Of a stretch of 64,000 nt of DNA, positions 2,513 through 13,943 are shown piece by piece. A program made the position numbers and the translations under genes. Location of the stretch: the sequence record PV292302.1. The stretch is one strand, 5' to 3'. This DNA is from Escherichia phage Jgk1. The notes under the pieces are model-generated. The model was not told the DNA's origin, ran no database searches, and saw nothing but the letters and a program-made list of their open reading frames with translations. Position 1 is the first letter of the stretch; each line of letters starts with the position of its first letter.

Positions 2513-3568
2513 ATGGCAAGTATCGACTCACTTGTTGTGTGTAACTCACGACAGGCTCGTAAGTTTGTTATCCGTACTTTGTTAGCAGGCAACGTTCCGT
2601 TCCTGACTTCATCTCCAGGTATGGGTAAATCTGCAATGATTCGTTCTATTGCAGAAGAATTTGGTATGAAGCTGATTGACCATCGTCTGTCTACTTCTGC
2701 CCCGGAAGACCTGTCAGGTCTGCCTCGTTTTACCTCAGATGGGCGTGCAGAGTTTGCACCATTCAATGACTTGTTCCCTCTGGAAGGGGATAAGATTCCT
2801 GATGGTTATAACGGCTGGCTTCTATTCCTGGATGAGTTTAACTCAGCCAAGAAGGAAGTAGTAGCTGCTGCATATAAACTGATTCTTGACCGTATGACTG
2901 GTCAGAAGAAATTACATGAAAATGTAATGATTGTCTGTGCTGGTAACAAACAAACTGACCGTGCCATCGTTAACCCAATGGGTACTGCAATGCAGTCTCG
3001 TGTGGTTCACTTTGAGATGGAAATGAATTTCGACATCTTTCTTGAAGATGTAATGATTCCTCAGAAGTGGGATGAACGTCTGGTTGCATTCCTTCATGCT
3101 AATACATCGTATCTGCATGACTTCGACCCAGCTCATAAGAACAAAACGTTCTGTTGTCCTCGTACATGGGACTTTGTTAACAAAGACCTTAAGAACCAGG
3201 CTCCTGGGGCTTTACCAGATGAAGATTCCCTCTATTATGCTGGTCATGTTACGGCAGGTAAGGCTACAGAATTCGTACAGTTTACTCAGGTTTATAACCA
3301 ACTGGTCACTATCGAACAGGTAGTTAAAGACCCGAAAAATGCACGATTACCCCAGGACAACAACCTGTGCTGGGCTACTGTTACATATCTCGCTAACAAG
3401 ACTACGGTAGACAATTTCCCAGAAATTGTGGAATACATTCAGCGTTTCAACACGATGACGCATCGTATTCTTTACTTCCGTGCAGCCAGTAAGATGTGTC
3501 CAGATGTCACTGGTTTACCAGAATGGCGTCAGGCTGCTGCTTCCCTGTCTCGTTACTTACACGGATAA
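2513..3568 (+). CDS. AAA+ ATPase, MoxR-like
   Basis: Walker A SPGMGKS, Walker B-like LLFLDEF; RBS AAGGA upstream. Confidence 0.7.
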   Translation: MASIDSLVVCNSRQARKFVIRTLLAGNVPFLTSSPGMGKSAMIRSIAEEFGMKLIDHRLSTSAPEDLSGLPRFTSDGRAEFAPFNDLFPLEGDKIPDGYNGWLLFLDEFNSAKKEVVAAAYKLILDRMTGQKKLHENVMIVCAGNKQTDRAIVNPMGTAMQSRVVHFEMEMNFDIFLEDVMIPQKWDERLVAFLHANTSYLHDFDPAHKNKTFCCPRTWDFVNKDLKNQAPGALPDEDSLYYAGHVTAGKATEFVQFTQVYNQLVTIEQVVKDPKNARLPQDNNLCWATVTYLANKTTVDNFPEIVEYIQRFNTMTHRILYFRAASKMCPDVTGLPEWRQAAASLSRYLHG

Positions 3569-3575
3569 AACAATA

Positions 3576-4748
3576 ATGAACCAGATACCTCAGCACACAC
3601 TTAGCGACGACCAACTGATGCGTGAATATGACCGTATTCAAGCTCAGGCATTCTTAGGTAAGAGTGCAGCTTTCTTTGGTTCGTTGCTGTGTAGCCTTAA
3701 ATTCTCATGGCAGCGTGAGAATTGTGAGACAGCTCAGACCGATGGTATTGAGCTGCAATTTAATCCAGACTTCTTTGTCTGGATGTGCCCAGATGCCAGG
3801 GAAACCGTGCTTATGCACGAACTCTGGCACGTAGCTTATCTTCACGGCATCCGTCAGGGTAGTCGTGATGGAAGCATTTGGAACGAAGCCTGTGACCATT
3901 TCATCAACCTTCAATTAGAAGCTGATGGTTATAAGTTCACTGGCATAGAAGATTGCTGCAAAGACCCACACTATATTGGATGGGTCGAAGAAGACATCTA
4001 CGATGACCTCATGAAGAACCCACAGAAAAGGCGTAAGCCGTCTGGTGGAATCTGTGATGGTCTTGCTGGCGACATGGTTACCCTCGCTTCAGGGTTGTCC
4101 CAGGGTGCTGTCGTCAACAACGTAGTACGTGCAATGCAGCAACAAAAACTAGCTGGTGGAACATTAGCTGGACAGGGTGCAGGGCGTTTAGAGGAAGTGA
4201 TTACTCAGTTCCTTAAGCCTGTAGTTCCGTGGCAGCAAGTCCTAATGGACTTCTTCACTGACATTGATGACACACGGTATACGTGGGCAAGACCTAACCG
4301 TCGGTACACTGATATCTATCTGCCATCTCTGGAAGATGATGAAGGACGTTTAAGACACCTGGTTTACTTCGAGGATGTATCCGGTTCTATTAGTAAGGCT
4401 GATTCTCTGCGTTTCAACTCAGAGGTTGCTTACGTTAAAAGTCAGTTCAATCCTAAAAAGATGTCTCTGGTCACTTTCGACGATATTATTCAGAACGAAA
4501 TTAATATCACCGAGGAGGATTCCTTCGAGGAGATTAAAATTACAGGACGTGGAGGCACTAGCCTCATTCCTGTACGTGACTGGATTATCAAACATAAACC
4601 AACGGCTGCTATCATCTTCTCTGATATGCATGTTGCTCCAATGCAAGAACTCCCGTTTGATATTCCTATCATCTGGGTTTGTTTAGGAAACCGTAGTGCT
4701 ACTGTACCTTTCGGTGAACTCTTACATATTGACCCAGGAATGAAGTAA
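3576..4748 (+). CDS. VWA-domain protein with N-terminal HExxH metallopeptidase-like motif (DUF2201-like partner of MoxR ATPase)
   Basis: HELWH motif and MIDAS-like DVSGS motif; immediately downstream of the AAA+ ATPase; start taken at first ATG after upstream stop. Confidence 0.55.
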   Translation: MNQIPQHTLSDDQLMREYDRIQAQAFLGKSAAFFGSLLCSLKFSWQRENCETAQTDGIELQFNPDFFVWMCPDARETVLMHELWHVAYLHGIRQGSRDGSIWNEACDHFINLQLEADGYKFTGIEDCCKDPHYIGWVEEDIYDDLMKNPQKRRKPSGGICDGLAGDMVTLASGLSQGAVVNNVVRAMQQQKLAGGTLAGQGAGRLEEVITQFLKPVVPWQQVLMDFFTDIDDTRYTWARPNRRYTDIYLPSLEDDEGRLRHLVYFEDVSGSISKADSLRFNSEVAYVKSQFNPKKMSLVTFDDIIQNEINITEEDSFEEIKITGRGGTSLIPVRDWIIKHKPTAAIIFSDMHVAPMQELPFDIPIIWVCLGNRSATVPFGELLHIDPGMK

Positions 4749-5254
4749 TGGTTATCAACGGAAAAGCTCTCTTTCACTCATCCCAACTACTCGATATACC
4801 TGACCGCAAAGTCTCACACCTAGGTGTAAGCTTTGGTCTGGGTGAAGCTGGTTATGATATTCGTATCAAACAAGATATAACCTTCTATCGTTTATTTGGG
4901 TTGATTCCAATGGTGAAAACTGTCGATGGTGAGACGGTAACTCGTCGCTTCGGTAAGTTTGCATTGGCTTCAGCAATAGAGAAGTTCAACATGTCACCGT
5001 CCTGCGTGGCTATCGTTCACGATAAGTCAACATGGGCTAGACGTGCTTTATCTGTATTTAACACCGTAATAGAACCAGGATGGAAAGGGTACCTTACCCT
5101 CGAACTGGTCTATCACGGTCGTAAGAAGTTACATATCCCGGCAGGTTCCGGGATTGCCCAAGTGTTATTCCATTTGGTTCAAGAACCTGCCCATTATGAT
5201 GGCAAGTATCAGAACCAAGAAAACCAACCTGTAGCTGCAAGAAGCAGCAAATAA
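4748..5254 (+). CDS. dcd: dCTP deaminase-like (dUTPase fold)
   Basis: C-terminal region ...IEPGWKGYLTLELVYHGRKKLHIPAGSGIAQV... resembles the bacterial Dcd pattern IDPGWSGCIVLEFYNSGK...; 168 aa. Confidence 0.6.
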   Translation: MVINGKALFHSSQLLDIPDRKVSHLGVSFGLGEAGYDIRIKQDITFYRLFGLIPMVKTVDGETVTRRFGKFALASAIEKFNMSPSCVAIVHDKSTWARRALSVFNTVIEPGWKGYLTLELVYHGRKKLHIPAGSGIAQVLFHLVQEPAHYDGKYQNQENQPVAARSSK

Positions 5255-5263
5255 GGAAAAATC

Positions 5264-5467
5264 ATGTCAGTATTTACTACCAAGACTCAATCCGGTCTGA
5301 AGACAACTGTAGTAGCAGCAAACGTTGCATTTGTAACTTGCGATGAGGGTAAAGCAACTATTCACTTTGCTGGTGGTGCTGTTCTTCCTACTGATGTAGG
5401 CTATGACTCAGTACGTCGTAATGTAGCTAAAGCACTCGGCAAATCTGCCGAAGCTGATACAGAGTAA
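5264..5467 (+). CDS. hypothetical protein
   Basis: 67-aa ORF with GGAAAAA-type RBS. Confidence 0.4.
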   Translation: MSVFTTKTQSGLKTTVVAANVAFVTCDEGKATIHFAGGAVLPTDVGYDSVRRNVAKALGKSAEADTE

Positions 5468-5575
5468 GTAATACCTGGGCTGAAATGAAGCCAAGGCATT
5501 TACCTGAATAGCCCTGCATCGTAGGGCTATTTGGGGAAGTTCCTTCCTTCCATTGCTTATCCATCTCCTATCCAA

Positions 5576-5600
5576 AGCCCACCTAACCGTGGGCTTTTTT
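5576..5600 (+). terminator. rho-independent terminator
   Basis: stem AGCCCAC/GTGGGCT followed by TTTTT; a second perfect 8-bp hairpin lies at 5508-5530 without a T-run. Confidence 0.55.
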
Positions 5601-5616
5601 AATTACAGGAAACGTT

Positions 5617-6042
5617 ATGTTTACTCGTCAATACGGTAAGTCTAACCTCATTGAAATGTTACTGGGTATGGACTTCGGCAAGTTGGAACAAACTGCATTG
5701 CAGATTGGGACAGGAATACATGATTCAATTGTTGTTAGTACCCCAACTGCCCGCAACGATAGTCAAGAAGATGCAATGGTTGTAATGCTGCAATATTTGC
5801 AACAAGGTCTTACTGGTACATTTGCAAAGCAACTACGGGCAGATGAGTTTGAATGTAAACCCACTCCTCACTGCCAGAAACTGGTATACAACATCATTGA
5901 TGGCTTTTGGACTAAAAACTCATTGGGATTATTTGGTTTATACAAAGAACAACTTGATAGGAATCCCAAAACCAAAGACCTGTTTAAAAGTAAAAGCACC
6001 ACTCACCATTACCCGTGGTACAGAAGAGGCAGCAAATACTAA
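5617..6042 (+). CDS. hypothetical protein
   Basis: 141-aa ORF after an intergenic region carrying a terminator. Confidence 0.4.
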   Translation: MFTRQYGKSNLIEMLLGMDFGKLEQTALQIGTGIHDSIVVSTPTARNDSQEDAMVVMLQYLQQGLTGTFAKQLRADEFECKPTPHCQKLVYNIIDGFWTKNSLGLFGLYKEQLDRNPKTKDLFKSKSTTHHYPWYRRGSKY

Positions 6043-6488
6043 TGCGTATCCCATTCTTAAACAAAAGGAAAGTAATTCCGAGTCTATTCCAGAAAGGGAT
6101 TGAGGATGAATTTGCACTTAATAAAAAGGCTCAAGAATACATTGTGACCCTGTTTGTGGGCATTCACTCAAGTGCAGAAGTACCACTCACTTTCATCTTT
6201 GAACAGGTGTTTGTTGTGTACAATCTGGCCTTGTTTTCTGGTTCCCACGAAGTGAGTGACCAAGCTCGCATAGCCCTGCAAAAGCTCCGTAGCGAGTTTG
6301 AGGAGCTAAATACTAATGTTCCATACATAATGGATGCATTTACGTCTGTGGCCTGCTCTAAGGCTCTGCAAATGGGCATTCCAATCTTACAATCACTACC
6401 CCGTAGTGAATTTAAGCTAGCCTATGTGCAAGCCAGAAAATTAACAGAGTCAGGCAATATTTTAACCTACCTTGAGACTCTAAGATGA
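6042..6488 (+). CDS. hypothetical protein
   Basis: ATG at 6042 overlapping upstream TAA (TAATG). Confidence 0.4.
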   Translation: MRIPFLNKRKVIPSLFQKGIEDEFALNKKAQEYIVTLFVGIHSSAEVPLTFIFEQVFVVYNLALFSGSHEVSDQARIALQKLRSEFEELNTNVPYIMDAFTSVACSKALQMGIPILQSLPRSEFKLAYVQARKLTESGNILTYLETLR

Positions 6489-7486
6489 TTAGTGCAAAAG
6501 TGATTGCTGACAGTATCCATTCGGAGACTGGAACACGTATCACAACGTTTGAACTGGTATACCCACGTTTCATTCATAGTGAGTTTATGACTCACCGTAT
6601 CTTCAACCGTAATGCCTCTAGCAGTCGTGCAATCCCTACCGACCGTTTCATTGAACAGGTTCGTACTAGCCCAGTATTTCCAAGCTACTGGGGTAAGAAC
6701 CAGAAAGGTATGCAGGCATTTGAAGAACTGTCTGAAGACCAACGTAGTGATGCAATCTTTATCTGGGACCAGGCTGCGTCCAGTGCTGCTACCTATGCAG
6801 AAATGCTGCGTCGTGGACAAGTCCATAAGCAGATTGTTAATCGCATTCTGGAACCATTCACACACATTCGTGTGGTAGTAACCTCAACCAGCTGGGCTAA
6901 CTTCTACGGCTTGCGTGACCATAAGGACGCACAACCGGAGATTCGTATCCTGGCTCAGGAGATGAAAAAAGCCCATGCTGAAAGTAAACCTACGAACCTT
7001 CACTGGGGTGAATGGCATCTTCCGTATATTACTGCTGCTGATTCTGCTAATGCTTATAATCATTGCAAATATCAACGAGTTACGAGAGATGAGCCAAATA
7101 GTGAGGAGATTTATGGTCTGCTACTGAAAGTGTCTGCTGCACGATGTGCACGAGCTTCCTACAATAACTTTGAAGGTAAGCCATCCACTCTAGAAGAAGA
7201 CCTGAGTTTGTTCTCTAAGCTAGTAGAAGACCAACCTATTCATGCTAGTCCTACTGAGCATCAGGCAACACCTATGCGTCGTTCTATGCCATACGTAAAC
7301 AACATGAACCCATCTACGTGGGAACAAGGTGTAACGTCTATGGATAGAGAAGGCAAATTGTATTCAGGTAACATCCTGGATTTTATCCAGTTCCGTAAAC
7401 TCATTCCTGGCGAAACAATCACAAAGGAATCTGACTATAAAAAACGTTGCGATGAGGTTTTACTTTCTCGTAATGGCAGAGTCTGA
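6485..7486 (+). CDS. thyX: flavin-dependent thymidylate synthase (ThyX)-like
   Basis: motif ...THRIFNRNASSSRAIP... resembles the ThyX RHR-x7-S signature; lies next to dCTP deaminase. Confidence 0.45.
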   Translation: MISAKVIADSIHSETGTRITTFELVYPRFIHSEFMTHRIFNRNASSSRAIPTDRFIEQVRTSPVFPSYWGKNQKGMQAFEELSEDQRSDAIFIWDQAASSAATYAEMLRRGQVHKQIVNRILEPFTHIRVVVTSTSWANFYGLRDHKDAQPEIRILAQEMKKAHAESKPTNLHWGEWHLPYITAADSANAYNHCKYQRVTRDEPNSEEIYGLLLKVSAARCARASYNNFEGKPSTLEEDLSLFSKLVEDQPIHASPTEHQATPMRRSMPYVNNMNPSTWEQGVTSMDREGKLYSGNILDFIQFRKLIPGETITKESDYKKRCDEVLLSRNGRV

Positions 7487-7653
7487 TTGTGTTGTTTGGT
7501 TTGAACAACTATTAAGGCAATCGCAATGTCCGAAGATGATAAAAACGTACTGTGTAACTTTGTTGGACAGTACTGGGATTTATTCCAACAACACTGTGCC
7601 GAATCGGGGGATGACCCTAATCGCATTTATGAAGAATTAGGTGGAGAGCCTGA

Positions 7654-7899
7654 ATGAAAAAGCTCACTATTTACGCAATGATTGCTAGCTGTATCATTTC
7701 ACTGATTTATGTAATTAAGCTTCAGTGGTTCATAGAAACTGATATTCAGTTCTGGCGAATTACTGCCATTAATGCACTAAGTGAGTTTGGTGTACTGTGC
7801 TTCTATTACTACGCTCGTGACTACGAGGCTATTAAGGCGCAGGAGGAACATACTAAACGTGTTATGGGTATGTTCTACGGTAAGGAACCAAAAGAGTAA
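7654..7899 (+). CDS. hypothetical small membrane protein
   Basis: N-terminal hydrophobic segment; followed by a terminator. Confidence 0.4.
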   Translation: MKKLTIYAMIASCIISLIYVIKLQWFIETDIQFWRITAINALSEFGVLCFYYYARDYEAIKAQEEHTKRVMGMFYGKEPKE

Positions 7900-13168: not shown

Positions 13169-13573
13169 ATGTCTAAAGTTTTTCGTTCTAATCGCAAAGC
13201 AACTGATGACGACATCATTAAAATGAATGCCGTTGGTCTATCCCTAGCAACTATCGCAAAGACATTGGGGGTTCACCCTACAACAGTTACTTTGCGATTA
13301 CGTTCTCTCAATATTGAACCTGCTGACACTCGTCGCACATTCATGGAGAACGTGTTACGACCCATGCCTACCCATGTAGCAGACTGGCTTGCAGAGCAAG
13401 TTGGTCCACAGTATGAGATTCGCTCTTACGTTCGTGATTTGCTCATGGAGGCCTACAATAACCGTGATAAATACCAAGAGAGTGCTCATGAGCGATTCCT
13501 TAAACGATACGCTGGTACAAACTCAGAACTGGTTTCTGAAGGCAGTGCCAACTCCGACCCAGAAAAACATTAG
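13169..13573 (+). CDS. putative HTH DNA-binding regulator
   Basis: helix-turn-helix-like segment GLSLATIAKTLGVHPTTVTLRL; ATG at 13169 with GAAGAGGA RBS. Confidence 0.4.
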   Translation: MSKVFRSNRKATDDDIIKMNAVGLSLATIAKTLGVHPTTVTLRLRSLNIEPADTRRTFMENVLRPMPTHVADWLAEQVGPQYEIRSYVRDLLMEAYNNRDKYQESAHERFLKRYAGTNSELVSEGSANSDPEKH

Positions 13574-13943
13574 TACCCAGATTGGTTGCCATCTGGAAGA
13601 AGTAGAAGAAATGCTTCAGACCATTTATCCAAATGGCAATTACGATGCAGAATTGCTGCAACGTGCACAAGATGCCATTACAAATCTGGCAAACCATATG
13701 AAACGTAATGACGATGCCTATCGCATTGACGTTAGTACGAACCTGCTGGATGCACTGGTAGACCAAATTGTTACAGCAACTGGTGTTGGTGTTTTCCTGG
13801 GCATGAATGTCCCTGGAGCGTTGGCAGAAGTCAATCGCTCAAACTACTCTAAGTTCGAAGATGGGGAACCTATCTTCAACGAAAACAAGAAAGTTATGAA
13901 AGGTAAGGATTACACTCCACCTGACTTAACACCATTCATCTAA
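13488..13943 (+). CDS. MazG-like nucleotide pyrophosphohydrolase (putative)
   Basis: EEVEEM acidic motif and C-terminal ...EVNRSNYSKFEDGEP...KGKDYTPPDL; start ambiguous between 13488 and 13611. Confidence 0.35.
   Translation: MSDSLNDTLVQTQNWFLKAVPTPTQKNISTQIGCHLEEVEEMLQTIYPNGNYDAELLQRAQDAITNLANHMKRNDDAYRIDVSTNLLDALVDQIVTATGVGVFLGMNVPGALAEVNRSNYSKFEDGEPIFNENKKVMKGKDYTPPDLTPFI

Follow-up and report, generated by a model that had tools for sequence, protein, structure and literature searches.

The described flavin-dependent thymidylate synthases (ThyX) are represented by the canonical enzymes of Thermotoga maritima (Tm; TM0449, PDB 1o26/1kq4), Mycobacterium tuberculosis (2af6) and PBCV-1 (A674R, 4fzb). 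ThyX is an antibacterial drug target, and its motif RHR-x7-S, together with Arg78, is regarded as a conserved essential. In the T. maritima enzyme, R78 is directed towards N1/C2=O of reduced flavin and stabilises FADH- (PMC11940539); it is also among the residues hydrogen-bonding dUMP, and Y91 gates the active-site loop (PMC3498832). In phages, a group of ThyX-like proteins comprises N4 gp30-like proteins and those of Moo19 (gp44), G7C, rV5-like phages, Pakpunavirus and ICP1 (gp193), collected in PHROG 85, and the pairing of thyX with a dCTP deaminase gene (dcd) has been treated for N4-like roseophages (PMC11934525). Here, we analyzed a stretch of 64,000 nucleotides from Escherichia phage Jgk1 (PV292302.1; hereafter the window), which carries a dcd-like gene for a protein of 168 amino acids (aa) and a thyX-like gene for a protein of 333 aa. 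Both open reading frames (ORFs) lie on the plus strand exactly where an initial annotation, made from the sequence without database searches, had placed them (Table 1).

The gene pair as such is ordinary. In the closest relatives, dcd already bears the label ‘dCTP deaminase’ and thyX the label ‘thymidylate synthase / FAD-dependent thymidylate synthase’, and dcd plus thyX in a phage represent a routine nucleotide-supply module; any wider importance would rest with the enzyme family to which the 333-aa protein belongs. This protein differs from the canonical enzymes, with which it shares 16–25% sequence identity, in that the equivalent of Tm residues 20–63 comes after the equivalent of Tm 59–200, and in about 100 extra residues with invariants specific to its clade. 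Its direct orthologues are the members of the phage group; over the full length, aa identity is 87% with the Moo19 protein and 42–47% with those of Pakpunavirus, ICP1 and the rV5 type. All of these orthologues share a THR motif and the rearranged order, and the N4-likes also share the dcd neighbourhood.

Taken together, dcd and thyX probably belong to a DNA-metabolism block in which Dcd and a rearranged flavin-dependent ThyX shift the pyrimidine pool of the host away from dC and in favour of dT. To judge by its family and its conserved catalytic residues, the 168-aa protein would act as a homotrimeric, dUTPase-fold Dcd and convert dCTP to dUTP. The dUTP would then presumably be turned into dUMP by the host Dut, which is present in E. 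coli, or by the phage Dcd itself if it is bifunctional. As its fold, its conserved residues and its gene context suggest, the 333-aa protein would convert dUMP, CH2-H4folate and reduced flavin to dTMP and H4folate, and host kinases would make dTTP. Because H4folate would be released in the ThyX step, host ThyA and dihydrofolate reductase (FolA) would both be dispensable. The route from dCTP via dUMP to dTMP without host ThyA, as put forward in the initial annotation, is thus supported, except that the Dcd family yields dUTP and not dUMP. As a further candidate for the step from dUTP to dUMP we considered the ORF at 13389–13943, which matched phrog_671 ‘nucleotide pyrophosphohydrolase’ (E=5.9e-33); it was rejected, as it had no Pfam or meaningful PDB support. 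The window has a G+C content of about 43–45% (42–48%) compared to about 51% in E. coli, and the phage would presumably benefit from a higher proportion of dTTP.

The following comparisons support the assignment of the 168-aa protein to the dCTP deaminases. It scored 60.5 bits against Pfam DCD (PF22769; cutoff 27) and matched phrog_1663 ‘dCTP deaminase’ with E=1.3e-57, and its best PDB matches, 4dhk (E=6.7e-11) and 3km3 (E=1.4e-10), are both deposited dCTP deaminases. It shares the dUTPase fold with these Burkholderia/Anaplasma enzymes and with the E. coli-type Dcd (1xs1). In E. coli Dcd, Ser111, Arg115 and Glu138 are catalytic and Lys178 and Gln182 bind the triphosphate. An alignment with the E. 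coli sequence (confirmed identical to 1xs1) paired S111/R115/E138 with S94/R98/E119 and the C-terminal K178/Q182 with K153/Q157. Since both the catalytic and the C-terminal residues align, these results support a dCTP-deaminating enzyme. Compared to known Dcds, the protein is shorter (168 vs 191–206 aa); E. coli D128 is replaced by Glu, as is likewise the case in 4dhk and 3km3.

The ThyX call for the 333-aa protein had been given as provisional, pending a search with a profile of the family. In this search, the Pfam Thy1 profile (PF02511) was matched with 50.4 bits (cutoff 24.8), the match being confined to residues 20–169, which correspond to profile positions 59–190 of 191; the stricter outcome, a score above the TIGR02170 equivalog cutoff, was not reached (see below). 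The protein furthermore matched phrog_85 ‘thymidylate synthase’ (E=7.6e-112) and shows the three-dimensional fold of ThyX.

The missing part of the profile was found in the C-terminal half of the protein. There, ‘SAARCARASY ... DLSLFSKLVEDQPIHASPTEHQ’ resembles ‘SAVRAARVSF ... DRHLIEYLMKHGHETPFEH’ at the N-terminus of Tm ThyX (sequence confirmed identical to 1kq4/1o26). We built a family alignment and profile from 161 diverse relatives with identities down to about 42% and compared it to Tm ThyX using hhalign. The first match paired residues 17–170 with Tm 59–200 (E=8.7e-5), and a complementary second match paired residues 215–263 with Tm 20–63 (E=5.4e-5; P=1.6e-6 for the sub-profile alone). 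The score of the second match was 38.9, compared to 10.8±2.4 (maximum 24.7) over 300 shuffles of the Tm sequence and 12.9 for the reversed sequence. A construct re-ordered as Q1–14 + Q203–260 + Q17–175 raised the Pfam Thy1 score from 50.4 to 60.4 bits and extended the profile coverage from 59–190 to 13–190; for TIGR02170, the score rose from 52.5 to 64.2 bits, still below 87.9, and the coverage from 61–206 to 18–206. With shuffled or reversed inserts, the construct scored 47–50 bits and its coverage was unchanged. The relocated element is detectable solely with the family profile or the re-ordered construct: residues 171–333 alone gave no match in Pfam, even at E<=10. Likewise, hhalign gave no match of residues 170–214 to canonical strand 1.

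This order is matched by the secondary structure seen in the model. The first two strands, 3–12 and 18–27, are joined in a tight hairpin at the place of canonical helices 1–2, and the helices 206–225 and 236–248, followed by H253-x-S-P-x-E-H259, all come after the core. The relocated element comprises the helices ‘SAARCARASY’ and ‘DLSLFSKLVE’ and the sequence H253-A-S-P-T-E-H259. Canonically, these two helices, together with H-x-(S/T)-P-x-E-H, lie between the first two core strands (strand, helices 1–2 with H-x-T-P-x-E-H, strand, core), whereas in the 333-aa protein they are found about 190 residues downstream. According to these alignments, the ThyX chain is rearranged, and the relocated helices are probably the spatial equivalent of canonical helices 1–2. 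This rearrangement explains both the partial profile match and the extra length. Neither this length nor the THR motif, the two points that had made the initial annotation cautious, is peculiar to this gene; both characterise a large ThyX clade in which the order of the chain is changed. Three parts make up the extra length, namely the relocated element, some 100 residues specific to the clade and a tail of 19 residues. In the literature that we searched, of which coverage was incomplete, we found no account of such a ThyX rearrangement, and priority cannot be claimed.

The motif reported in the initial annotation, THR-x7-S, is present as T36-H37-R38-x7-S46-S47-R48. Across the 161 relatives, T36 was found in 158, H37 in 161, R38 in 157 (Lys in the other 4), S46 in 160 and R48 in 161 sequences. 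As Thr occurs in 158/161 relatives and the motif residues are near-invariant, THR is a clade signature under purifying selection and not the result of decay. In the hhalign alignments, Tm H79/R80/N85/S88/R90/R147/N169/R174 correspond to H37/R38/N43/S46/R48/R120/N139/R144 of the core, and Tm S30/H53/T55/E58/H59 to S225/H253/S255/E258/H259 of the relocated element; all of these positions are at least 95% conserved among the relatives. Of the extended motif of canonical ThyX (Tm H53, S88-x-R90-Y91 and R174), the equivalents H253 (relocated), S46-x-R48 and R144 are invariant, but Y91 corresponds to an equally invariant Ala49. Further invariant residues, specific to the clade, are W177-H178-x-P180, R304 and K115; possibly, R304, K115 or H178 are candidates to stand in for Arg78.

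Several of the relatives with a length of 520–650 aa contain inteins (P0140, P0144, P0161, P0198, P0211, P0236). These are of the HNH or LAGLIDADG type and are inserted after H31, right after T-H-R38 or after F40, or within H253-A-S255. Inteins usually occupy conserved catalytic motifs in essential enzymes, and their positions here speak for functional constraint on the ThyX motifs. When the long relatives were scanned for domain fusions, no added enzymatic domain was found; most of the proteins scanned had intein-splicing, HNH or LAGLIDADG domains, and in P0209 and P0178 the Thy1 domain alone was detected.

The clade is widespread. Of 1.84 billion cluster representatives searched with HMMER, 5,265 matched at E<=1e-3, and 2,811 still did so at E<=1e-30. 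Among 50,697 phage records, tblastn detected the ThyX-like protein in 1,033 (994 full length). The phages concerned include N4-likes, Pakpunavirus, rV5/phAPEC8-like, ICP1 and phiCbK-like phages as well as Campylobacter and Flavobacterium phages; in EE36phi1, the homologue is annotated as ‘N4 gp30-like’. In ICP1, Pakpunavirus EPA1 and Phapecoctavirus Schickermooser, it is encoded directly upstream of nrdA/nrdB. Among GTDB species genomes, at least 376 copies were found, about 25 of them in Pseudanabaena genomes, where a rearranged THR-type ThyX of 275 aa is encoded on the chromosome (L053 3986–4813, L060, L063 and about 20 other loci). At the one Pseudanabaena locus examined (L053, complete chromosome NZ_CP159508.1), the copy looks non-prophage, since the neighbouring ORFs, read by eye, resemble cob genes, recO and a transporter. 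Overall, distribution and gene contexts point to a working enzyme of deoxynucleoside triphosphate supply. A ThyX 86% identical to that of the window is also encoded on a contig assigned to an ‘archaeon’ metagenome-assembled genome (L005, JANQNF010000027.1, 69 kb); as its size is that of N4-like genomes, this is probably a mis-binned phage contig.

Several observations weigh against the proposed pathway. Both proteins stay below the equivalog cutoffs of their NCBIfam models, the 168-aa protein, in this respect unlike E. coli-type Dcd, with 76.5 against 92.8 (TIGR02274) and the 333-aa protein, unlike canonical ThyX, with 52.5 against 87.9 (TIGR02170); for this reason, the activity of both enzymes can only be inferred. 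In the 333-aa protein, the canonical R-H-R-x7-S is lost by the change of Tm R78 to T36, and Tm Y91 is replaced by A49, R74 by S32 and N163/R165 by T133/T135, so that the handling of cofactor or substrate may differ. As RHR, Y91, chain order and equivalog score all deviate, we class the protein as a ThyX variant and not as a plain member. The clade has no solved structure in the PDB, where the top sequence match had E=0.05, and we found no biochemistry for it in the literature searched, of which coverage was incomplete. Finally, a terminator-like hairpin and three ORFs of unknown function separate dcd from thyX, and ThyX of this type lacks an adjacent dcd in other phage lineages (ICP1, EPA1 and Schickermooser loci). 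In N4-likes, the two genes nevertheless recur together, with thyX a few genes after dcd. They would serve a common pathway, though not necessarily from a single operon.

Given the replaced contact residues, the 333-aa protein might alternatively be a neofunctionalised paralogue that retains ThyX chemistry with another substrate or outcome and is no dTMP synthase. Such a protein might, for example, methylate UMP or dCMP, arrest at 5-hydroxymethyl-dUMP or use a different flavin or reductant. A precedent is PolB of Streptomyces cacaoi (4p5a), which is paralogous to ThyX and acts in polyoxin biosynthesis by methylating UMP/dUMP; its match exceeds those to true ThyX chains by a negligible margin. 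We consider neofunctionalisation improbable, given that the residues of the dUMP and folate sites are invariant and that the gene contexts disfavour it: unlike PolB, the 333-aa protein has no antibiotic-biosynthesis context, and DNA-metabolism genes flank thyX. Far less credible still is a role of Dcd in feeding dUTP into the phage DNA (dU-DNA), with the ThyX-like protein irrelevant or inactive. Phage dCTP deaminases do supply dU-DNA synthesis in PBS1, DSS3_VP1 and PhiR1-37, but these enzymes are zinc-dependent, have a cytidine-deaminase fold and are set apart from the E. coli-type family (PMC12697855), and on account of this different fold we rejected dU-DNA supply. In addition, the catalytic motifs of the ThyX-like protein are under strong purifying selection, and no dTMP phosphatase or dTTPase was noticed among the window ORFs scanned, which did not cover every ORF.

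The likeliest of the rivals concerns the first enzyme, which could be a bifunctional dCTP deaminase-dUTPase like the DCD-DUT of Methanocaldococcus jannaschii and M. tuberculosis. It would then make dUMP directly and leave the host Dut unneeded, which fits the ‘dCTP to dUMP’ wording of the initial annotation. The protein belongs to the same superfamily as DCD-DUT, it has a weak Pfam dUTPase match (26.2 bits), and its PDB likeness to the bifunctional M. tuberculosis enzyme (4a6a, 2qxx; E of about 1e-6) is comparable with that to E. coli Dcd (1xs1; E=8.5e-6). However, the top PDB matches, 4dhk and 3km3, are deposited as plain dCTP deaminases, and Dut is available from E. coli anyway; we regard bifunctionality as rather unlikely. 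To our knowledge, there is no sequence rule that tells mono- from bifunctional Dcd. The reading that we prefer is still the supply of dTMP by Dcd and ThyX, with the host Dut, or else a bifunctional Dcd, in between.

Beyond the phage, it is a tentative possibility that the THR clade constitutes a biochemically uncharacterised and structurally rearranged lineage of flavin-dependent thymidylate synthases. In this lineage, a C-terminal module would provide the equivalents of Tm S30 and H53–H59 and Arg78 would be replaced, and it would extend over about 2% of phage genomes, thousands of metagenomic clusters and Pseudanabaena chromosomes. Compared to canonical ThyX, such enzymes may handle the cofactor differently, use another reductant or respond differently to inhibitors. 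If active, this very large natural clade, invariably without Arg78 and with an active site built from a differently ordered chain, would represent a natural experiment showing which ThyX residues are truly indispensable, and it would account for the ‘partial ThyX domain’ found in the profile annotation of such proteins. The THR-type protein might even be the sole thymidylate synthase of a Pseudanabaena cell.

Table 1. Features of the dcd–thyX region in the window of Escherichia phage Jgk1 (positions refer to the whole window).
Feature	Position	Strand	Basis or remark
DUF2201_N (putative metallopeptidase) and VWA-like domain protein	3480–4748		Pfam; partner of AAA ATPase 2513–3568
Dcd of the dCTP deaminase family with dUTPase fold, 168 aa	4748..5254	+	PF22769, phrog_1663, TIGR02274
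67-aa ORF, N4 gp27-like, function unknown	5264..5467	+	phrog_7594 E=3.6e-22
Terminator-like hairpin, 9-bp stem and T run, between dcd and thyX units	5574..5597	+	consensus scan, pattern match only
141-aa ORF, function unknown	5617..6042	+	phrog_12812 E=3.8e-31
148-aa ORF, function unknown	6042..6488	+	listed from GTG 6015, ATG 6042 likelier start
ThyX-superfamily protein, 333 aa, rearranged ‘THR’ clade, N4 gp30-like	6485..7486	+	Pfam, PHROG, hhalign
ThyX core, residues 17–170 = T. maritima ThyX 59–200	6533..6994	+	hhalign E=8.7e-5; conservation in 161 sequences
T36-H37-R38	6590–6598	+	within ThyX core
S46-S47-R48	6620–6628	+	within ThyX core
Relocated ThyX N-terminal element, residues 215–263 = T. 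maritima ThyX 20–63	7127..7273	+	hhalign
C-terminal tail, residues 314–333	7424..7483	+	57-nt in-frame insertion before stop vs Moo19 (DNA and protein alignment)

The length of 333 aa, which had been noted as unusual, is real. Close homologues have 314 aa, and the additional 19 residues result from the 57-nt in-frame insertion; this tail is the only feature of the protein that sets it apart from the phage orthologues. Its sequence, KESDYKKRCDEVLLSRNGRV, is absent from all 314-aa homologues, and it was modelled at low confidence (predicted local distance difference test, pLDDT, 43–60).

The window comprises most of the genome of an N4-like podophage (Schitoviridae, Enquatrovirinae). Based on megablast, the region 4400–7800 shows about 81% nucleotide identity to Shigella virus Moo19 and about 79% to G7C-like Escherichia phages, and an ORF of 3,447 aa has the size of the virion RNA polymerase, an N4-like trait. 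The window also encodes rIIA, an AAA ATPase and a DUF2201/VWA protein (Pfam/PHROG). The latter two lie directly upstream of dcd, the start of which shares 1 nt with the stop codon of the DUF2201/VWA gene. In PHROG and RefSeq relatives, this DUF2201/VWA protein is called ‘HNH endonuclease’, apparently a wrong label that has been passed on between records.

Downstream of dcd, the 67-aa ORF has a homologue in Moo19 that carries the annotation ‘similar to phage N4 gp27’. In Moo19 and G7C-like phages, an imm-like ‘immunity to superinfection’ gene is located upstream of thyX, between the gp27-like ORF and the homologue of the 141-aa ORF (L001 4139–4399). This gene is absent in the Jgk1 window, where about 150 nt with the terminator-like hairpin (5467–5617) take its place. 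The 141-aa ORF had no match in Pfam, NCBIfam or PDB, and its stop overlaps the ATG of the 148-aa ORF by 1 nt; the end of the latter shares 4 nt with the beginning of thyX.

For the product of the 148-aa ORF, the prediction is a bundle of helices and a conserved leader, MRIPFLxKRK, that is disordered. This leader, near-invariant as MRIPFLxKRK...L(F/Y)QK, forms the start of the ORF upstream of thyX (window 6042–6110). In other N4-likes (P0087, P0092, P0095, P0111), MRIPFLxKRK is joined in frame to the N-terminus of ThyX. One locus (L085, 3501–3580) has the leader–ThyX fusion and no 148-aa gene, so the leader is retained with or without the body of this gene.

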